From Candidatus Pacearchaeota archaeon (GTDB lineage Archaea; Nanobdellota; Nanobdellia; Pacearchaeales; GW2011-AR1), in assembly GCA_016866975.1 (NCBI GenBank), contig VGKP01000002.1, positions 32,942 through 96,941 on the forward strand: a stretch of 64,000 bases of DNA. Direction: 5' to 3'. The position numbers and the translations under genes were made by a program. The notes under the pieces were generated by a model. That model did no database searches. It had not been told where the DNA came from and worked only from the letters and a program-made list of their open reading frames with translations. Positions 3,191 through 33,087 of this stretch are shown here, piece by piece; the first letter of the stretch is position 1, and the number at the start of each line of letters is the position of its first letter.

Positions 3191-3339
3191 GCCCGGATGG
3201 CCCAGCGGTTACGGCGCGAGATTGCTACCTAAGGAAACCAATGTTTCCTTGTGGGTCAACCTTCTTTAAGGAAGGAAGACGCAAATGGCAAATATCTCGT
3301 TTCCGAAAGGATTCCCAGGTTCAAATCCTGGTCCGGGCG
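3191..3339 (+). tRNA. tRNA-Ser(GCT) with 66-nt intron at 37/38 (3228-3293)
   Basis: GCCCGGA/TCCGGGC acceptor + G73; CGAGA-TT-GCT-A^A-TCTCG; long variable arm TTTCCGAAAGGATT; intron 3' GGCA pairs with the anticodon loop (BHB). Confidence 0.9.
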
Positions 3340-21785: not shown

Positions 21786-23486
21786 ATGGCTCAAGAGGTG
21801 TTATGGTCTTTAAGTATTATTCTTGGTATTGTAGCAATAACCACAGTTATAGCAAGGATGATAAAGCAGCCTCCAATAATCGCATACCTAATTGCAGGGA
21901 TAATTGTAGGCCCCTTGTTTCTAAAATTTCTTAGCCCCATCAGTCCATCTGCAGAGATTATTCAAATATTTTCCCATATTGGTGTGGCATTTCTTCTTTT
22001 TATAGTAGGTCTATCTCTTGATTTTAGGGTATTGAAGGAGATAGGAGGCGTTGCAAGCGCGGCAGGGTTTGCAGAAATTCTCTTGACGGGAGTTATAGGG
22101 GGATTTATCGCTATAGGTATAGGTTTCTCTTCATTGACAGCACTTTATATTGGTGCAGCCCTTGCCTTTTCATCTACAGTTGTCGTAGTCAAGATACTCT
22201 CAGACAAGAAAGAAATAGATACTCTCCATGGCCGCATCGCTCTGGGTATACTCATAGTTGAAGATTTTATTGCCAGCATAGCACTGATGTTGGTCCCTCT
22301 TTTAAATGAGGGTGGCGGATTGTACTCTATTTTGTATAAGGTAGTGATTGTGGTGGCCCTCATAGGAGTAGTTTTCTTGGGAGCCACATTTGTATTAGGC
22401 AGATTTATGAATTATCTCTCTAGGAACCAGGAAGTGCTTTTCTTGTTCGGCATAGCTTGGGCATTGCTTCTTGCATCACTTTTTGATTATCTTGGATTTT
22501 CTCTTGAGATAGGGGCATTGATTGCAGGCATGTCTCTCGCTTCAAGTAAATATACTATGGATCTTGGAAGCAAGATGAAGCCATTAAGGGATTTCTTTGT
22601 AGTGTTATTCTTTGTATTCTTCGGAAGTCAGCTTGCAGGTACCATTTCCTGGAATCTCGTCCAGAATGCAGCCCTTCTTTCATTGTTCATTATAATAGGT
22701 AAGCCAGTTATAGTGATGAGTATCTTGAGGATTTTTGGATATAAGAAAAGGACAAATTTTCTTGCAGGTTCAAGTCTTGCCCAGATAAGCGAGTTCTCAC
22801 TTATCCTTATACTGTTGGGCTTTACTCTAGGTCATGTACCGCAGGAGATTATGAACTTGGCAATTTTGGTAGCGATAATAACTATAGGGATAAGCAGTTA
22901 TGGGATGTATTATGCACATTCGATATTCAATAAGATAAGCCACATGCTCAATGTATTTGAAGGCAAGAGCCCTCACTCAATTAAGAATGTAGAGAACAAT
23001 TACGACGTGGTGCTTATAGGCTATCATAGGATGGGATACAAGATACTTGGTTCTTTGAAGAAAATAAAATCTCCATTTATAGTGGTCGACCATAATCCCA
23101 AAGTCATTCTTTCACTTTCAAAATGGGGAGTGAACTGCATCTATGGAGATGCAAGCGATAAAGATTTCTTGAGGCAGCTTGAGTTGCACAAGGTAAAACT
23201 GATAATATCCACAATTCCTGAACCAGAGCCAAACAGAGCAATACAAGAATATCTAAATGAGAATGGAATAAAGTCCGCATTCATAGCGACTGCAGAACAG
23301 CCCAGGGAAGCTTTCAGCTTATATGATCAAGGAGTTGATTATGTCCTTATTCCTCATCATCTCGGAGGCGAGTATGCTGCCCACATACTTGAGAAATTCA
23401 AGACTAACAAGAATCTTTACAAGCAGCTTGGGAAAAGGCATAGTGAACAGCTTAAGAAAGGCAAGGATCACTCAGAGTATCTTTAA
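21786..23486 (+). CDS. CPA2/Kef-type cation:proton antiporter with C-terminal TrkA-N (RCK) domain
   Basis: Many TMs, SSTVVVVKIL, ILIVED; IGYHRMG...VVDHN...GDA in the RCK domain. Confidence 0.92.
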   Translation: MAQEVLWSLSIILGIVAITTVIARMIKQPPIIAYLIAGIIVGPLFLKFLSPISPSAEIIQIFSHIGVAFLLFIVGLSLDFRVLKEIGGVASAAGFAEILLTGVIGGFIAIGIGFSSLTALYIGAALAFSSTVVVVKILSDKKEIDTLHGRIALGILIVEDFIASIALMLVPLLNEGGGLYSILYKVVIVVALIGVVFLGATFVLGRFMNYLSRNQEVLFLFGIAWALLLASLFDYLGFSLEIGALIAGMSLASSKYTMDLGSKMKPLRDFFVVLFFVFFGSQLAGTISWNLVQNAALLSLFIIIGKPVIVMSILRIFGYKKRTNFLAGSSLAQISEFSLILILLGFTLGHVPQEIMNLAILVAIITIGISSYGMYYAHSIFNKISHMLNVFEGKSPHSIKNVENNYDVVLIGYHRMGYKILGSLKKIKSPFIVVDHNPKVILSLSKWGVNCIYGDASDKDFLRQLELHKVKLIISTIPEPEPNRAIQEYLNENGIKSAFIATAEQPREAFSLYDQGVDYVLIPHHLGGEYAAHILEKFKTNKNLYKQLGKRHSEQLKKGKDHSEYL

Positions 23487-23753: not shown

Positions 23754-25016
23754 ATGCTCGATATCAGGCTGTTCCGTGAAAATCCTCAGATAATCAAAGA
23801 GAGTCAAAAGAAAAGAGGAATGCCTACTGAAGAAGTAGATCTTGTGATGAAGTTGGACAATGAATGGAGGGCGCTCAAAGCAGAAGTTGACCACTTAAGA
23901 AATAAGCGCAATCAGGTTTCTAAGGAAATTAGCGAATTGAAGAAGAAAAGAAAGAAGGCAGACACGTTACTCAAAGAAGCAAAAAAGATTCCGAAGATGC
24001 TTATAGAGAAGGAGAACAAGATGAAGGAGCTTAATGAGAAACGCGACAATATTCTCAAAGAAATACCTAATATCATCGATCAATCTGTTCCACTCGGAGA
24101 CGCTTCTCATAAAAAAGTCATCCTCGAGCATGGTAAGAATAAGTCAACATTCACTCATAAAGATCATGCAGATATTCTTGAAGCGCTCGATATGCTCGAC
24201 ACGCAAAAAGCATCTAATGTTGCAGGATCGCGCTTCTACTACTTGAAAGGTGACCTTGTGAAGCTCAATCTGGCCATTATGAGTTTTGCCTTAGATATCT
24301 TGCAGAAGAAAAGATTCACACTGGTGCAGCCACCGTATATGCTCCGCAAAGCAGCTCTTGAAGCAGCGCTGCCCCTCAAGGCATTTGAGGAAATGATTTA
24401 TAAAATTGAAGGGGAGGACTTGTACTTAATAGGCACTGCGGAGCATGCGCTCAATGCATATGGCATTAATACCACATTCTCACCTGCAGAGCTTCCGCTT
24501 CGCCTTGCAGGGATTTCTCCTTGTTTTAGGAAGGAAGCGGGCTCGCACGGCAAGGACACGAAAGGCATATTTAGGATCCATCAGTTTGAGAAGATCGAAC
24601 AGTTTATTTTCTGCAAGCCTGAAGATTCATGGAGAGAGTTTGATCTCATCCTCAAAAATTCAGAGGAAATTCTCAAGGCTCTTGAAATCCCCTTCCGGTT
24701 TGTCATCCTCTCATCTCAAGACATGGGGCGCGTTCCTACTAAAACGGTGGACTTTGAAGGTTGGTTCCCAAGCCAGAATGCTTACCGCGAACTGGGGTCA
24801 TGCTCAAATTGTTTAGACTATCAGGCGCGGAGGAGCAACACCAAGTATCAGGACAATAATGAATTCACATTCGTGCACACTCTTAATAACACAGCCATTG
24901 CAACTGAGCGCATGATGGCTTGCATTATAGATAATAACCAGCAGAAAGACGGCACAATAAAGATTCCAGAAGTCCTTCAGCCCTACATGAACGGCAAGAA
25001 AGTGATAGGAAATTAA
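23754..25016 (+). CDS. serS: Seryl-tRNA synthetase
   Basis: MLDIRLFREN coiled-coil arm; LIGTAEH; FRKEAGSHGKDTKGIFRIHQFEKIE; ELGSCSNC; HTLNNTAIA.ER. Confidence 0.97.
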   Translation: MLDIRLFRENPQIIKESQKKRGMPTEEVDLVMKLDNEWRALKAEVDHLRNKRNQVSKEISELKKKRKKADTLLKEAKKIPKMLIEKENKMKELNEKRDNILKEIPNIIDQSVPLGDASHKKVILEHGKNKSTFTHKDHADILEALDMLDTQKASNVAGSRFYYLKGDLVKLNLAIMSFALDILQKKRFTLVQPPYMLRKAALEAALPLKAFEEMIYKIEGEDLYLIGTAEHALNAYGINTTFSPAELPLRLAGISPCFRKEAGSHGKDTKGIFRIHQFEKIEQFIFCKPEDSWREFDLILKNSEEILKALEIPFRFVILSSQDMGRVPTKTVDFEGWFPSQNAYRELGSCSNCLDYQARRSNTKYQDNNEFTFVHTLNNTAIATERMMACIIDNNQQKDGTIKIPEVLQPYMNGKKVIGN

Positions 25017-25063
25017 GAAGAGAAAACAATTATCTTTAAAAGTGGGCATTCATCTTCTTTGAG

Positions 25064-26500
25064 ATGAATTTTAATTGGATTTTTAATCGTGATGAAAAAG
25101 TACCGCTCAATAATGATTCTTCGGAGAGAGTGGAAGGATTTGAGCACGAGTATGCGATTGAATTTGATGAGATCGCTGATAAAGATGAAAGAGACAACTA
25201 TATTGTGCAGAAATTACGGGGAGCGGAGGGCGTTAATGCCCCCAATGTTTATGGTATGCCTGCGCGGCACCGTTTTAATGGAGGAAGAGTGCACATTGAT
25301 ATGAAACATCTTGAAGGGTGTACACCAGAAGTTACGAATACATTGGATTTACTGAAATACGATCGAGAGTTAGACCTGTTTGTTCTTGATCTCTTTGGCC
25401 CAGCATACAAACCACGAATTTACAAAATGAGTAGGGACGCTCGCGATACATTTGGCGGACTTCACAGAAACATCATGACTAGGCTTAAACCCGATGTTCG
25501 GGACAGAGAATCACTCTTACTTTGGGCAGTAGTGGAGAAAGTTCTCAATGGAACAGGTTACCAGAATCCTGATGGCCAATACGAACTGCTTCAACGTCGC
25601 ACATACATAGGAGATGCTCTATCAGACAACTCTACAGGGGGCAAAGGATCTCGGCCACTTCTTAATCTTAGGGAAGAGAGACACTGTAAGGTAGATGGAT
25701 GGTACCGTTTTCATGATATTGCAGGCGATGGTAACATGAATCAGGTAGCACTTGCTCTTAGCCAGGTGCTCTGGAAATGTGTTCTACAGCTAGCAGAAGA
25801 AGATAAGCTGCCAAGAATCCCATATTATTCAGGAAAGCATTCAAATGAAGCCGTACGCGATATGGATAGCATTTGCTGCCGCCACAGTGACTGGACTCTC
25901 AAAGGAACACCTCTTGAATTTAGATCTCTCACTTCTGTCTATCGCGAATTCTACAAAGTCATTAGAGGAGAGCTCTATGGTCAGAATACATTTACTGACA
26001 AAATAATTGATGTATTTGGAGACACAATTCCTGCTCTAGATAATATCAATAATGATCCCTATGCTCTTGCAGGAAGGCTCGATTGGGTGGGAAAGAAATT
26101 CATGATTGAATATTTTATGGGTGCAACAGGAAGAGGTCCTGAAAGCAATGAAGTACAGAGCCTTAATGTAGATTATCACCGTATTGACGAAGGAGGTTTG
26201 TTCCATCTTACACGTTTAAACGATGGGTGGATTGAGAACGAGGTTTCGGATAAAGAGGCGCGCACCGCCAGAAATACTCCTCCATTGACACGGGCGCATG
26301 CACGAGGAGAAATTGCACAAGCATTCTCAGAGATTGCCATGAAGAATGGATTATCCATTCTTGTTGACTGGGAATCAATTGCTCTTTACAATAAAAGTAC
26401 ATCTCCTGTCTGGACGTGCAATTTTCCCAGACCAGCACACACTTATGTTGAATGCGTGAGTGAATTCAAAAGTTTCATCAGTAATTGTTCCAAGGCATAA
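25064..26500 (+). CDS. Pup-ligase/deamidase (PafA/Dop family) homolog 1
   Basis: GFEHEY, NGGRVHIDMKHLEGCTPE, VLNGTG, LQR, SRPLLNLREERH, YRFHDIAGDGNM, RLDWVGK, DYH, PPLTRAHARG occur in PafA/Dop motif order. Confidence 0.85.
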   Translation: MNFNWIFNRDEKVPLNNDSSERVEGFEHEYAIEFDEIADKDERDNYIVQKLRGAEGVNAPNVYGMPARHRFNGGRVHIDMKHLEGCTPEVTNTLDLLKYDRELDLFVLDLFGPAYKPRIYKMSRDARDTFGGLHRNIMTRLKPDVRDRESLLLWAVVEKVLNGTGYQNPDGQYELLQRRTYIGDALSDNSTGGKGSRPLLNLREERHCKVDGWYRFHDIAGDGNMNQVALALSQVLWKCVLQLAEEDKLPRIPYYSGKHSNEAVRDMDSICCRHSDWTLKGTPLEFRSLTSVYREFYKVIRGELYGQNTFTDKIIDVFGDTIPALDNINNDPYALAGRLDWVGKKFMIEYFMGATGRGPESNEVQSLNVDYHRIDEGGLFHLTRLNDGWIENEVSDKEARTARNTPPLTRAHARGEIAQAFSEIAMKNGLSILVDWESIALYNKSTSPVWTCNFPRPAHTYVECVSEFKSFISNCSKA

Positions 26501-26631
26501 ATTATTACTTTAAAATTCGTGGGGCCGTGGGTCAGTTTAGCAAAGCTTAAACCTTCGGGAGGTATGCACCTCATACACCAAATAAGCAATATAAACATAT
26601 AAAATATTAAAAAGGGTTTATATTTGCCAAA

Positions 26632-28101
26632 TTGATGAAAGACAGGATTACACCTCGCGAAGCATTGGAAAGAAAAGCTGCCCCTCTCGTGTTTTTTGAC
26701 CATATTCCTCAATATAACCGGAATCGAATAATCTCGAGTGAACAGGAGAATGGGCAGAAATTAAGGAAAAAAGTGCATAAGGATTACGAAAAGAAAAGTG
26801 GTTGGGAGACCGAATTTACAGCATACTTGTCTGGATTTCTGCCAGATGTGGTGAGTCTTGGGGGAAGGATATATGCAGATGCAAACCATGTAGAGTTTGC
26901 ACGGGCGGAATGCTCAAGCCCTCTGGAAGCAGTTGTTCACGAGGATGCTTTTGACAGGTTCGGTTTTAATCTTCTCACAGGCACCTTGAGACTTGTTCGT
27001 AAGCTCTATAAGAACAGTATAGATTTTGGCAATCCGAAAAGGAATTCTCCTCCTGTAAGCTTCGGCTTCCACGAAAATTACAGCACAAAAATAATGTTTG
27101 GCCAAAGCAATCCTTCAGGTTTGTTGGCATTGGTTCCTCACCTAATATCTCGTACAATCTTTGGGGGTGCAGGATCATTACATAAGGCAAATAAATTTTT
27201 AAGGGCCCAGCGCTCTCTCTTTGTTAATAAATTGTGGAGCTTTAATGCTATCAAGGACGAAAGAGGGATAATCTGCACTCGCGTACAGCCACACACAGAG
27301 ATTTCTGGTCTTCAGAGGCTACAACTTACTTGTGGAGACGCCCTTATATCTCCAGTAAATCGCTTCCTTCTTTATGGCACAACAGCAACGGTAGTTGACC
27401 TAATAGAAGATAGGATAATTCCATTATGTGATTATGACACAAGCTACGCAGTTGAAGATTTTCATGGAATAACTTATGACCCTGAGAACTATATATTAAG
27501 AGGGTTCCCATCTAAGAATTGGACTGCTCTGGATGTACAAAGGAGGATTCTTGATAGTGCAATTAAGTCTTACTCGCATAGGGATCCTCAGACAAATGCC
27601 ATTCTGTTTCTATGGGAAGATACTCTTAATAAGTTGGAATATGATCCATTTCAGCTTGTTGGAAGGCTAGATGCAATTACCAAGAAAGCATTATATACTT
27701 GTCTTGATGAGAGATTTCCAGATGTCCCTGAAGATTCTTTTTGGCAGATGAGGGGCATAGACATGAATTATCACGATATTAATCCAAACTATAGTATTTT
27801 TCAGGTAATGCGTTCCGAGGGGATTATGGAGGATTTATATTCCAATAAATTATTTTCATGGTATATGCAAAATCCGCCTCCAAAAACCAGGGCGCATTTT
27901 AGGGGCAATCTTGCAAAAATTCTAATTAGGGCAAAAGAGGATTTAGCAGTCCTTGATGGAGATGAATGGGATAAATGCGTTCCATTATCAGATATCTACA
28001 ATATTTATCCGAATCTATGGGATTTAGATCTTTCTATAGATGACCCGTTTAATTCTTACAATGATCGTCTCACAGAGATAAAGGGAATTTTATCTCATTA
28101 A
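26632..28101 (+). CDS. Pup-ligase/deamidase (PafA/Dop family) homolog 2
   Basis: GWETEF, GGRIYADANHVEFARAEC, LYKNSID, SFGFHENY, ISRTIFGGAG, AQR, RGIICTR..PH, RLQLTCGD, GRLDAITKK, DMNYHDI, PPKTRAHFRG. Confidence 0.9.
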   Translation: MMKDRITPREALERKAAPLVFFDHIPQYNRNRIISSEQENGQKLRKKVHKDYEKKSGWETEFTAYLSGFLPDVVSLGGRIYADANHVEFARAECSSPLEAVVHEDAFDRFGFNLLTGTLRLVRKLYKNSIDFGNPKRNSPPVSFGFHENYSTKIMFGQSNPSGLLALVPHLISRTIFGGAGSLHKANKFLRAQRSLFVNKLWSFNAIKDERGIICTRVQPHTEISGLQRLQLTCGDALISPVNRFLLYGTTATVVDLIEDRIIPLCDYDTSYAVEDFHGITYDPENYILRGFPSKNWTALDVQRRILDSAIKSYSHRDPQTNAILFLWEDTLNKLEYDPFQLVGRLDAITKKALYTCLDERFPDVPEDSFWQMRGIDMNYHDINPNYSIFQVMRSEGIMEDLYSNKLFSWYMQNPPPKTRAHFRGNLAKILIRAKEDLAVLDGDEWDKCVPLSDIYNIYPNLWDLDLSIDDPFNSYNDRLTEIKGILSH

Positions 28102-28120
28102 CTTAAACGAGCCTAATTAT

Positions 28121-28238
28121 GTCGGGAACCGATGAAAATCACACCTTTCAAGGTATGGTGGTTCCCGAGCATCTCCAAAAACGAGCGCCTGCAACAAACC
28201 TCGGCTTTTAAGCCGAGGTGGCGCATCGTTTTTGTGAT
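28121..28238 (+). mobile_element. Divergent PATE-like element, copy 4 (118 bp)
   Basis: TTAT|gtcgggaac...gttcccgagcat...caaa cctcggc-ttttaa-gccgagg...gTGAT; compensatory changes in both stems. Confidence 0.8.
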
Positions 28239-28773
28239 ATTTATATATACATAGAAGAAATTGATGATGGAAATAGATATAATTCAGGTAATGAGTGATT
28301 AAGATGGAAAATGTTCTCTTGAAAATCAGGCAGAACTTAAACAAGTTACAATTAGGAGAATTTATTATTGCAGAGATCTGTTAAGGTTCTTAGATGAAAG
28401 TAACAGGACAAATGTCTATATTCTTGATGGATTTTTTATCTTTCAAGGAAGGTCCAGATTACGGGCCAGATTTTGTTACAGAGACAGCAACTGAAACCAT
28501 AAAGGGGAGAGATGCATCCCCATTTATTCTCCGGTGCGCAAACTCACCTCAAGAGAAAAAAGCAAGAGAATTTGGCGTGAAATTTTTATAAGAGGTTTTC
28601 ACAATAATGGAAAAGTTTTGCAGAGAGTTCAGCAACTTCTTCAAAATGCCAATAAAAACCAAAATTCAAGGAAAAATCACTTCAGCATCCAGCATTTATG
28701 CCTAGAAAAGGCAAAGACTCCAATCAACAGCTGTCTTTATTTTAAATAAATTAAAAAGTAAGGAAATGTGTTT

Positions 28774-28998
28774 TTATTCAGTTATTTTATCGATGATTGC
28801 AAGCACAGCTCCCACTATTGTAAGGACTACAACAATCCATCCTGCGACTTGAGTTGTGGTCTCTAATTCAGGTATATACAATACTCCCTCGATCATTCCA
28901 AATCCTACAGCAAGTGATACCAATATTCCAGTTATCCAGAGTATTACGCCTAGAAGGATAGTAAGTGCCCGATTAGATCCTCTTCCATTTTTTGCCAT
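28774..28998 (-). CDS. Small two-TM membrane protein
   Basis: 74 aa, two hydrophobic helices, GGTGA SD upstream. Confidence 0.75.
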   Translation of the reverse strand: MAKNGRGSNRALTILLGVILWITGILVSLAVGFGMIEGVLYIPELETTTQVAGWIVVVLTIVGAVLAIIDKITE

Positions 28999-29974: not shown

Positions 29975-32032
29975 TCAAAATCCTCCAGCCATATGGAGTG
30001 GATTTTTTGCTTTGACCTGAAGGCCTCTTACAGCATCCAAAACTCTGGAATCAGGAGATAATACAAAGACATGGTCATCTTTTGAGCGCAATGCTCTATA
30101 TATTCTTTGAAGGAATTCTCTTCTTGCCTTATCCCTGTAGAAATCCCAAAAATATTTCTCATGTGTCTTCTGTAATATCTTCCAGAAAACGCCATTGACA
30201 TTAGGATTGGGATATTTTGTGAATACGACTGAATTGCAGATGTCTCCTGGAAAATCTACTCCTCTCGAGCATTTTGTCGTGAATAATATAGAAGATTTTC
30301 TTTCTTTGAATTCTGAGACCATTTTCCCAGTCTTGTCTTCTGTTTGCAGGGCCATCAGCCTTTCTCTGGACATCAGATTGTCTAAGCGAAGGATGTGTAA
30401 TTCCTGCTCTGTAGGGAGATCTTCAAACGCATTGACATGTACCAAAGTAGGTCTCTTTGCTTTGTCTATGCATAGTGATAATGTTTTGAGATATTCATCT
30501 CTGGAATGTTTGCCTGAACTGAAATTTGAATACCTGCAATCAAATTCTTTTCCTGTCCTATGAATCTCTATATTGCCTTGCGGCATCGTCTCAGCTTCCA
30601 CTATCTCAAAGTCATCTATCCCGAATATTTCTTTAAGGACAATTGAGGAATGAAGAGTCCCAGACATCATGACTAAAGACTTGTTTTTCTTTACAATCTC
30701 TTGAAATTTCTTAGAAAGGTTCGTCGTGACAAGATTGACAAAGATATCTTTATCGACTCTTTTGTATGTGATGTATGTATCTTCAATAAAGTCTATGAAA
30801 TTCTTCGCCACTTCTATGGCTTTATTGGCATAATGCATCTCGTCTATGGCAATCTCGGCCTCTATTTCTGGATGTTTTAGAAACATCTTGAGTATCTTTT
30901 CCCATTGAGTTTCTTTTATAGGGTAAATCTTGTTCTCGTTTATGCCCAACGCCTGCTTGTTTTTTTCTTCAAGTCCGAGCAGGTTCTCAATTGATTCCAC
31001 AAGAACGCGCGCTTCTGGATGTTCAGGAGTTATTGAAGAAAGGGATGAAGAAAGGCGAGTTAGATTCAATGAATCCTGCATAGAGAAATTATCCAGGAAT
31101 TCGTCAGCTTCATCTATTATTTCCACTTCTGTTTCAGGCTTCCTGTCAAGCGCAACTTCTATCTTATATTTTGCCGCATTGAATATAAGGACATCCGCTT
31201 GCATATAAGCAAGGTATTGATCGTAATAAGAGCAACCTTCTTTTCTATGGTAAAATGTGAACTGCTTACCCTCAAGCCCATTGTAAGTCTTTTTTTTAGC
31301 ATCCTTTATAGCGGCAATTTCTATTTCTGCTGGTAATATTGGGCTCCAATAAGGATTGGCGGGGGCTATTGCTATCCTCCTAAGATCTTTTATCTCTGGC
31401 ATATCTTTGTTCCTTATATAAGGGTTCTGTTTATAATATTCTTCTAGTTTCTCTAAGTTTTTATCAGTTAACTTTATAGTGTCAGGAAGAGAAGGGTCGG
31501 CACACGAGACTCCTGGAAACAAAACAGAATCATGGTTTTCCCTCCCAGTTATCATTGCTATCTTCATCTTCTTACCCCCTTTCTTTAGGACATATTTTTT
31601 TGAAGTATAGTCCTCTTCATATTGCCTTTGCAGGTTTTTTACAGGCACAACTATAGATGCCCTGCCCAAAAGTCTAGCAATATTCAAGGCTATTGCTGAT
31701 TTTCCAGTACCGCATACGCCGTGAAGAAATACTAACTTCTTGCCATTATTTATATGTCCTGCAATTTCTTTGGCTATGGCTTCCTGACTCTTTCCATTTG
31801 AGAATCTTAGGGGTTCTAATTTTTTACCTTCAGAGTAAAGACTCCACGTCTCACTATCAACGACATTGCTTATTGTCTCTTCTTTTAGGAATGATAGTGC
31901 ATCAGATGTCCTTAGATTTGTGCCCAATAGCTCATCTTCATCCTCAATATCTCTGCGGTTGTTTCCAAAATTCACAGCCTTATTGTCAACACTAAATAAT
32001 TTTCCATTTGCATCAAACTGCATCCTCTTCAT
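29975..32032 (-). CDS. SF2 helicase, XPD/DinG-like
   Basis: GVCGTGKS (Walker A), IIDEAD, MSGTL, SRGVDFPGD, QRIYRALRS. Confidence 0.85.
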   Translation of the reverse strand: MKRMQFDANGKLFSVDNKAVNFGNNRRDIEDEDELLGTNLRTSDALSFLKEETISNVVDSETWSLYSEGKKLEPLRFSNGKSQEAIAKEIAGHINNGKKLVFLHGVCGTGKSAIALNIARLLGRASIVVPVKNLQRQYEEDYTSKKYVLKKGGKKMKIAMITGRENHDSVLFPGVSCADPSLPDTIKLTDKNLEKLEEYYKQNPYIRNKDMPEIKDLRRIAIAPANPYWSPILPAEIEIAAIKDAKKKTYNGLEGKQFTFYHRKEGCSYYDQYLAYMQADVLIFNAAKYKIEVALDRKPETEVEIIDEADEFLDNFSMQDSLNLTRLSSSLSSITPEHPEARVLVESIENLLGLEEKNKQALGINENKIYPIKETQWEKILKMFLKHPEIEAEIAIDEMHYANKAIEVAKNFIDFIEDTYITYKRVDKDIFVNLVTTNLSKKFQEIVKKNKSLVMMSGTLHSSIVLKEIFGIDDFEIVEAETMPQGNIEIHRTGKEFDCRYSNFSSGKHSRDEYLKTLSLCIDKAKRPTLVHVNAFEDLPTEQELHILRLDNLMSRERLMALQTEDKTGKMVSEFKERKSSILFTTKCSRGVDFPGDICNSVVFTKYPNPNVNGVFWKILQKTHEKYFWDFYRDKARREFLQRIYRALRSKDDHVFVLSPDSRVLDAVRGLQVKAKNPLHMAGGF

Positions 32033-32077: not shown

Positions 32078-32443
32078 CTAATCTCTCTCGACTTCTATAG
32101 AGTTTTGAGATTCCCTGATGACTATCTTGTTTTGGACTTCTCTTTTTATACCTGAATCCAGAGTCGCTATATACGCTCCCTTCTTGCCTATCGAGATAAG
32201 CCCTTTGTCCACAGCATCATTTCCAAGTGAAGTCTTCTTTATCTTTCTAGTGTTGAATAAATCAAATGCCATATCTATAGCTGCCCTGTCAGCCGACCTG
32301 ACTTTTAGGCGAAGGTCTTTTAGCTCCTGAAATACTTCCTTTGGGAGCAATACCTTGAAACCCATCTCCTCTAATACAGATATAAAATCAATTTTCTTTT
32401 TGACACAAGAAATGATGAAACTGCTATCAAGAATTGCCTCCAT
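32078..32443 (-). CDS. PIN-domain protein (Fcf1/Utp23-like)
   Basis: MEAILDSSF, EVFQEL, AVDKGL, IATLD; start at 32443 preferred. Confidence 0.85.
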   Translation of the reverse strand: MEAILDSSFIISCVKKKIDFISVLEEMGFKVLLPKEVFQELKDLRLKVRSADRAAIDMAFDLFNTRKIKKTSLGNDAVDKGLISIGKKGAYIATLDSGIKREVQNKIVIRESQNSIEVERD

Positions 32444-32526
32444 GAGATAAAAAAGATATAGAACTTTATAAGTCTTTGTAGTTGAGCGCCTGTAATGTTT
32501 ATATACATTCATTGCTTGATAAATCA

Positions 32527-33087
32527 ATGGAAGAGGTGTCCCATATAATCCACGTTCTTGAAGATGCCAAGCAGGCACTTCTAAAGAAAGACGGCACGAA
32601 GTTGAGCCAGCTATCAAACCAAACTATTCACTGTGCTTCTTCAGAGCAGGACGCAAGTAGCATTATGATTGCAGTGCTTGTCTATTCGATGAGCAAGATT
32701 GTTGAGAGGAAAGATCTCCATAGGATTAGGAATTATGACCTTGTGGTTAAAAAGTTTATTGGATACCTGGATCTCGCGCTTCTAGCATTGAAGGAAGGGA
32801 ATCTGGAGGCTTATGAAGGCCATCTGCAAAGAGCAAGGATTGCCTTGACAAGCACATCATTGAACATAAAACCATTTATTCAGGATGTGCTTAGGAAAGC
32901 TTCAATAAACAAGGCTTCAAAGATATATGAGCACGGCATTTCTATGGGCCGTACTGCAGCACTTTTGGGCGTTACTCAATGGGAGCTTTCGGAATATACT
33001 GGGCAAAAAGAAGTTCTGGAGAGGAATTATGTTTCCACCCAAGATGTCCGTTCACGTGCAGAAATGGCCCTGAGGTTCTTCTCATGA
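32527..33087 (+). CDS. Hypothetical protein with a C-terminal HTH-like segment
   Basis: HGISMGRTAALLGVTQWEL; ATG 32527 preferred. Confidence 0.7.
   Translation: MEEVSHIIHVLEDAKQALLKKDGTKLSQLSNQTIHCASSEQDASSIMIAVLVYSMSKIVERKDLHRIRNYDLVVKKFIGYLDLALLALKEGNLEAYEGHLQRARIALTSTSLNIKPFIQDVLRKASINKASKIYEHGISMGRTAALLGVTQWELSEYTGQKEVLERNYVSTQDVRSRAEMALRFFS

Follow-up and report, generated by a model that had tools for sequence, protein, structure and literature searches.

The window analyzed here is a stretch of 64,000 nucleotides (G000:C2:32942-96941) from the genome of a Candidatus Pacearchaeota archaeon, an assembly of 806 kb in 31 contigs that is 89% complete (G000). Within this window, serS (23754-25016, + strand) is followed by two genes on the same strand that encode enzymes of the Pup-ligase family, hereafter E1 and E2. 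The E1 gene (25064..26500, +) encodes 478 amino acids (aa) and begins 47 nt downstream of serS. The E2 gene (26635..28101, +) encodes 488 aa when read from the ATG at 26635; its open reading frame (ORF) opens at a TTG at 26632. A TTTAAAA box in the serS-E1 spacer (25035..25041, +), read directly from the sequence and located 29 nt 5' of the E1 start codon, is a possible archaeal TATA-type promoter element. The A/T-rich E1-E2 spacer (26501..26634, +) also contains TATA-like boxes, and its 131 nt are unique in the genome according to a genome-wide blastn search. E2 is probably transcribed on its own, with this spacer as the putative promoter. E1 and E2 are the only Pup_ligase genes of the genome, and neither a Pup gene nor a proteasome or AAA ATPase gene adjoins them, just as an earlier note on this DNA had described the locus.

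The same note had recognized two adjacent genes of about 480 aa from the PafA/Dop family. This assignment is borne out by both profile searches and structure prediction. In a hidden Markov model search with Pfam PF03136 (Pup_ligase, cut-off 25 bits), E1 scores 144 bits (E 7e-42) and E2 204 bits (E 5e-60), placing both far above the cut-off. The AlphaFold2 models are of high confidence, with a predicted local distance difference test score of 92.5 for E1 and 94.8 for E2. When compared by Foldseek, the E1 model reaches a template modelling (TM) score of 0.80 to Dop (5LRT) and 0.78 to the PafA-Pup complex (4BJR), and the E2 model scores 0.74-0.77 to Dop and PafA. The similarity to Dop (5LRT, 7OXY) and to PafA-Pup (TM 0.74-0.80) spans nearly the full length of the proteins: both the glutamine-synthetase-like beta-sheet cradle and the C-terminal domain typical of the family are present in the two models. 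The nearest structures outside the family are those of YbdK, gamma-glutamylcysteine ligase and glutamine synthetase, all of them remote.

The active sites were compared by means of alignments, in the numbering of Acidothermus Dop, and the equivalents agree with the residues R90, Y92, D94, T217, R227 and H241 named for Dop in PMC8599861. E1 retains the ExE motif (E27/E29), R75, the catalytic Asp (D79, equivalent to Dop D94), H82/E84, Q177/R178, R197, R203 (Dop R227), R215/H217 (H217 being Dop H241) and D222/N224. Most active-site columns are invariant over six members of the E1 clade. E2 retains the ExE motif (E36/E38), R78, Y80, the catalytic Asp (D82), the HEN motif and the equivalent of R227. 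Both enzymes also have the QR motif, and LDW(V)TKK, YH and PPxTRAxxRG, as motifs of the family, are retained as well. Some elements of the motif series that the earlier note had read from the sequence need correction. The ExE motif of E2 is to be found in 'IISSEQENGQ', which forms the first strand (residues 33-43) of the model; the look-alike 'GWETEF' at 58-63 is helical. Furthermore, E2 has TRVQPH for TRDEPH (Val/Gln for Asp/Glu), RLQ for RLH and an Ala in the LDW motif, and E1 has an HRN motif.

Neither enzyme can be assigned to PafA or to Dop. On the PafA equivalog model TIGR03686 (cut-off 551 bits), E1 scores 103 bits and E2 133 bits, both far under the cut-off, compared to 657 bits for a bona fide PafA (P0133). 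The picture is the same for the Dop equivalog model TIGR03688 (cut-off 492 bits), with 98 bits for E1 and 160 bits for E2. The earlier note had called for a tree with PafA, Dop and UBact-associated enzymes. In such trees the family falls into two halves, a split supported at 99-100 in three trees. Half I comprises the bona fide PafA P0133, the Dop-like enzymes, the UBact-type pairs of Latescibacterota and Verrucomicrobiota and planctomycete forms. Half II comprises E1, E2 and many metagenomic, DPANN and Saccharibacteria sequences. The separate clade holding E1 and E2 has a support of 100 in the Shimodaira-Hasegawa-like approximate likelihood ratio test (SH-aLRT). Trees in which the E2 clade is forced together with the Dop-like enzymes are rejected by the approximately unbiased (AU) test (p 0.014), and so are trees that join the E1 clade to the PafA-like enzymes (p 2e-49); the groups were chosen after seeing a first tree, which somewhat weakens these tests. 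E1 and E2 share 23% identity. Judged from the sequences, they are distant paralogues and no PafA/Dop pair.

This conclusion extends to the hallmark of Dop, the Dop loop of 40-65 residues ahead of strand beta2 (PMC8599861). The loop is absent from both enzymes: E1 has 50 aa and E2 has 44 aa between the beta1 Glu and the catalytic Asp, where PafA-like enzymes have 46-60 aa, most Dop-like enzymes 77-127 aa and the Dop-like P0165 63 aa. E2 is closer to Dop by score, also when searched against the sequences in the PDB (Dop 121 bits, PafA 84 bits). The half-II enzymes that are found beside a true Dop-like enzyme in DPANN loci likewise favor the Dop model slightly over the PafA model. Because these tag-linked enzymes show the same bias, the higher Dop-model score of E2 is no evidence of a Dop function.

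The contig is truly archaeal (DPANN, Woese- or Pacearchaeota-like), in line with the DPANN-like host named in the earlier note, and it is no bacterial chimera at this locus. This follows from the archaeal gene order and tRNA and from the independent assembly of the tandem in other samples. The order NhaP, serS, ligase, two-helix membrane protein and XPD-like helicase recurs in contigs of metagenome-assembled genomes (MAGs) titled Woesearchaeota or Pacearchaeota. The window also contains a tRNA match at 3191-3339 (+), whose span of 149 nt implies an intron; this tRNA was not called by ARAGORN. The serS-E1-E2 tandem was recovered in the assemblies of three further samples (JGI 3300020198, SRR7052762 and SRR7990525). 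Since all four assemblies are identical in DNA, a dN/dS ratio for the population is uninformative.

The role of half II can best be judged from related DPANN genomes in which a complete Pup-like locus is present. Three such loci (L057, G554:C26 3825-9348; L055, G247:C15 4484-10140; L056, G401:C21 5343-11464) combine an AAA ATPase that carries a proteasomal OB domain, a Dop-like enzyme whose beta1-beta2 insert is long, an ORF of 60-83 aa and a second family enzyme, which belongs to half II in G554 and G247. In G554 the ATPase gene is followed by the Dop-like enzyme (TIGR03688 416 bits, 77-aa insert), an 83-aa Pup-like ORF with the C-terminus ...LDEIDGILQDQPVRKRYRQPGGQ (a GGQ end, ...YRQPGGQ) and the half-II enzyme. 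The same order is found in G247, where the tag ends in ...QYKQQGGQ and is followed by two half-II genes in tandem; two more half-II genes are located on contig C23 of this genome. Over both loci, the Dop-like enzymes score 413-416 bits on TIGR03688 and have inserts of 77-97 aa. In G401 the ATPase and the Dop-like enzyme are accompanied by a tag ending in ...SGQ and a proteasome subunit. Genes for L37ae, RpoP, prefoldin, Drg and diphthamide synthase flank the G554 locus and identify its contig as archaeal; among the three, it is G554 for which the flanking genes establish this origin. The tags of these loci are not detected by the Pup models of Pfam and NCBIfam. As the half-I enzyme takes the Dop-like role in G554 and G247, the half-II enzyme is left as the ligase by elimination, and half II most likely provides the ligase in an archaeal pupylation-like system. 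The tandem and multiple half-II genes of G247 suggest a diversified specificity.

Some related arrangements deviate from this scheme. In G033, which belongs to the same family as the window's genome, a single gene of the Pup-ligase family precedes a 60-aa ORF that ends in ...TSYRQPSGE, and a Peptidase_C39 gene comes next (E 2e-22; C11, L039 6312-8482). A C39 peptidase is also encoded 2 kb from a half-II gene of Saccharibacteria (L044 9441-9920). This peptidase may act as a processing or deconjugating protease in place of Dop. Another half-II enzyme, P0029, belongs to the sister group of the E1 clade and is encoded directly 3' of a Cdc48-type AAA ATPase (L042 3550-7320); this linkage is a single instance, on a contig that looks archaeal.

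With these loci in mind, E1 and E2 are tentatively seen as two ligase-type half-II paralogues acting on an unrecognized, Glu-terminated protein or peptide substrate, a reading we favor while giving it somewhat less than an even chance. Both are anciently diverged members of half II with the glutamine-synthetase-like carboxylate-amine ligase fold, related to the enzyme that in other DPANN comes directly after the Pup-like tag gene and is paired with a separate Dop-like enzyme. By homology, each would bind ATP-Mg and transfer phosphate to the side-chain carboxylate of the C-terminal Glu of a small protein or peptide. The acidic residues of the active site would bind the Mg, as suggested by the glutamine-synthetase fold (Iyer et al. 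2008, PMC2588565). Subsequently, the conserved Asp (D79 in E1, D82 in E2) would help the amine of a lysine to attack, yielding an isopeptide bond. We infer that both enzymes use this ligase chemistry, that their substrate is of protein or peptide nature and that they are active despite the substitutions described below. E1 and E2 would then represent two ligases of different specificity for an unrecognizable tag or substrate, rather than a ligase/deamidase pair. Two intact ORFs of about 480 aa persist in a genome of only 0.8 Mb.

A number of observations speak against two active ligases with a Pup-like substrate. In E1, R135 replaces the Glu of the HEN motif (Dop E156), resulting in HRN instead of HEN; in the E1 clade, this Glu is exchanged for Gln or Leu (HQN or HLN), and the Arg equivalent to R90 is often missing. 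E2 displays Gln at the equivalents of Dop E229 and H241, the latter of which forms a hydrogen bond with the bound phosphate mimic in Dop structures (PMC8599861). Of the relatives of E2, P0003 (62% identity) retains the Glu and the His that have become Gln in E2; P0004 is 39% identical. The E1 orthologues have also diverged faster than their neighbors (43-46% identity vs 66-71% for NhaP and 60-77% for the helicase), and the family is rare in the lineage, being present in 4 of 201 genomes of the order and 10 of 401 of the phylum. Five genomes (G150, G572, G573, G574 and G575) carry one half-II gene each without a second family member. The window's genome does contain 20S proteasome genes of the alpha and beta type, and the only AAA relative detected in it is a single Cdc48-type gene, which encodes two AAA domains. 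Neither an Mpa/PAN-type ATPase nor a Dop-like gene was found in this 89%-complete assembly.

No tag was found either, and this too weighs on the same side. In the window's genome no plausible tag was obtained with the Pfam Pup model, with phmmer searches using five archaeal and UBact tags, with regular expressions for a terminal or near-terminal G[EQ] or when the small intergenic ORFs with a C-terminal Q/E were surveyed, with the limits that the assembly is 89% complete and that the archaeal tags, too, escape the Pup models of Pfam and NCBIfam. In the five genomes with a lone half-II gene, the counts of a Y-x4-G-[QE]-stop pattern in the DNA did not exceed those of the reversed control and came from tiny ORFs only. 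The G554 tag used as query gave no match in the DPANN genomes G150, G572, G573 and G575, and its own control was found. A six-row tag profile searched in five genomes gave no match and missed its own control too, making it uninformative. The scan for short ORFs with a terminal Glu or Gln, as suggested in the earlier note, left no plausible candidate in the window's genome or in the five lone-half-II genomes. Overall, E1 and E2 look like orphans, two ligase-type enzymes without their usual system.

Several individual candidates were considered and dismissed. Among the ORFs ending in G[QE], the sole real gene encodes ribosomal protein S24e, and the small ORFs of low hydrophobicity ending in Q/E encode ribosomal proteins, RpoK and similar proteins. 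Patterns with a Y-x(3-5)-[GASP][QE] end or with an internal G[EQ] and a tail yielded nothing plausible in this genome. No tag-like ORF is found within 2 kb of the pair, including the 131-nt spacer, and none of the small ORFs beside the Cdc48 and proteasome genes is tag-like. A 32-aa ORF ending in ...VSGQ is located within serS in another reading frame and lacks conservation, and nearby ORFs of 65 and 171 aa are not tag-like. The 74-aa gene at 28774-28998 (-) encodes the two-helix membrane protein, which is conserved except for its C-terminus. A 75-aa ORF at 28117-28344 (-) falls within a repeat. This MITE-like (miniature inverted-repeat transposable element) repeat of 123 bp lies directly 3' of the E2 stop (28117-28240) and occurs in at least 30 copies of 93-98% identity over the contigs of the genome.

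The position after serS is variable among the relatives. E1 orthologues (43-46% identity) follow serS in contigs of Woesearchaeota and Pacearchaeota MAGs, and the post-serS gene is of the E1 type in L006, L008, L010, L011 and the P0028 contig. It is of the E2 type in L031 and for P0004, which comes directly after serS, of the P0008 type in L032 and of the P0043 type in G150. In G098 no half-II gene occupies this position, and serS is followed directly by the orthologue of the window gene at 32078-32617. A single clade of all post-serS genes is rejected (AU p 5e-45), so at least two lineages occupy the slot. The pattern fits either an old tandem with differential loss or replacement by recombination.

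The neighboring genes show some further peculiarities. The window's serS is 43-56% identical to the serS of syntenic relatives, compared to 66-71% for the adjacent NhaP (21786-23486), and its identity to the serS of G033, which is non-syntenic, reaches 73%; this suggests that serS itself was replaced or evolves unusually fast. In L008 (7158-7925) and L010 (7065-7898), a protein of 255-277 aa is encoded between serS and the E1-type gene; it contains PIN-like acidic motifs (ILIDTS..., LETD, TRDNG), has no Pfam match and is absent from the window. The XPD/DinG-like helicase (29975-32032, -) is kept near the ligase slot and matches the PADLOC model 'typeIV_DinG' (E 2e-42). This match is probably just a family resemblance; no CRISPR-Cas context was seen near the helicase in the region examined. 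E1 and E2 themselves match none of the PADLOC models for anti-phage defence.

The orphan state of the pair can be explained in other ways. The lone half-II enzymes of DPANN and Saccharibacteria may have been repurposed and no longer use a Pup-like tag, in keeping with the repurposed gamma-glutamyl ligase that the earlier note had offered as its alternative. They would then ligate another substrate, such as a small amine or free glutamate, or act on the C-terminal Glu of a single specific protein and modify it. That no tag was found in the window's genome and in the five single-half-II genomes, despite the detection of the G554 control, is in line with such a change of function, and the same is true for the absence of a Dop-like enzyme and an Mpa-type ATPase, for the altered residues at the metal and phosphate sites and for the small-molecule ligases (YbdK, gamma-glutamylcysteine ligase and glutamine synthetase) as the nearest structures outside the family. 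Nevertheless, the full PafA/Dop architecture is conserved over about 480 residues with its C-terminal domain (TM 0.74-0.80), the motifs LDW(V)TKK, YH and PPxTRAxxRG are still in place, and other members of half II sit directly after Pup-like genes. Repurposing is regarded as unlikely. It is improbable that E1 and E2 are what is left of an ancestral DPANN Pup system in decay, pseudo-enzymes that have been retained by chance or because of some role other than catalysis. Full-length frames and confidently predicted folds in a strongly reduced genome would be unexpected for such remnants, most active-site residues are invariant in the E1 clade, and several divergent MAGs still carry an E1-type gene at this locus. 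What decay would explain are the missing partners, the substitutions at conserved catalytic positions in both enzymes, the faster divergence compared to neighboring genes and the patchy distribution, with the whole post-serS block absent in G098.

The earlier note had proposed a writer/eraser pair, and this proposal is not supported for a PafA and a Dop in view of the missing Dop loop, the separate clade (SH-aLRT 100) and the AU tests (p 0.014 and 2e-49). It could be saved if a Dop-like activity had arisen independently in half II, with E1 ligating the tag and E2 deamidating or removing it. The adjacency of the two genes, the preference of E2 for Dop over PafA (TIGR03688 160 vs 133 bits; PDB sequences 121 vs 84 bits) and the changes at its phosphate-binding positions, which could shift the chemistry, are compatible with this idea. 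The same preference is displayed by half-II enzymes that already have a Dop-like partner, though, and E2 itself has a spacing of 44 aa, no Dop loop and a rejected grouping with the Dop-like clade (AU p 0.014). Its Gln substitutions are absent from P0003, despite 62% identity. Moreover, in relatives the gene after serS is of the E1 type alone or of the E2 type alone, and therefore each enzyme works alone. A division of labor between E1 and E2 is held to be improbable.

Two ligase-type enzymes with an unrecognized substrate, the reading preferred here, can be placed next to the known systems. The pair resembles the actinobacterial Pup-proteasome system (Pup, PafA, Dop, Mpa/ARC and PrcBA) in its PF03136 family, its fold with the C-terminal domain and the conserved catalytic Asp, ExE motif and R227-equivalent Arg, and the window's genome has a 20S proteasome. 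In contrast to that system, E1 and E2 are not orthologues of PafA or Dop but form a separate clade without a Dop loop, E1 is substituted at the Glu of HEN and E2 at the equivalents of E229 and H241, and their host is an archaeon in which no Pup or Mpa/ARC gene was found. In pupylation and UBact-type systems, a small disordered tag ending in G-[EQ] is encoded beside an enzyme gene (Iyer et al. 2008, PMC2588565). The UBact-type loci of Latescibacterota (L013) and Verrucomicrobiales (L015) contain an ATPase, a Dop-like enzyme, a tag of 59-61 aa ending in ...RYRQRTG[EQ], proteasome beta and alpha subunits and a PafA-like enzyme. These loci of Gram-negative bacteria share with the window the presence of two family paralogues in one locus. 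Their enzymes both belong to half I, however, with the tag and proteasome genes in between, whereas the window enzymes both belong to half II and are separated by the 131-nt spacer only.

The DPANN Pup-like loci (G554:C26, G247:C15, G401:C21 and G033:C11) come from the same phylum and class as the window. Among tag-linked enzymes, E1 and E2 have their nearest relatives in the half-II enzymes of G554 and G247, and the genes of G247 are also arranged in tandem. Unlike the window, these loci have a Pup-like ORF (...GGQ, ...SGQ or ...SGE) with a Dop-like enzyme or a C39 peptidase and, in most cases (not G033), an AAA unfoldase; none of these partners was found in the window's genome. With glutamine synthetase, gamma-glutamylcysteine ligase and YbdK, E1 and E2 share the beta-sheet cradle and presumably the acyl-phosphate chemistry (Iyer et al. 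2008, PMC2588565), but the TM scores are only 0.3-0.45 and these enzymes lack the PafA/Dop C-terminal domain. A literature search for Pup ligases from archaea, DPANN or the candidate phyla radiation (CPR) found no paper; in the searchable literature, pupylation is described from bacteria only.

The window pair is an incomplete, orphan and tag-less variant of the archaeal Pup-like loci, and the complete DPANN loci are stronger evidence for archaeal pupylation than the pair itself. Much of the family diversity in DPANN and Saccharibacteria forms its own clade, which takes the ligase position in those loci where a tag is present. The same clade repeatedly comprises orphan genes with altered active sites and no recognizable tag. 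Active orphans would imply that organisms of minimal genome size have an unknown substrate or modifier; inactive ones would record the decay of a tagging system. It is conceivable, although rather unlikely, that the lone half-II enzymes of these episymbiotic DPANN and Saccharibacteria represent a new functional class that works without a tag of the Pup or UBact type and attaches, for example, a different, unseen modifier or a small molecule to proteins. If so, the fast-diverging slot after serS would reflect a specialization of the target range. The archaeal members of the family bear on the origin of the Pup system and of the bacterial proteasome.

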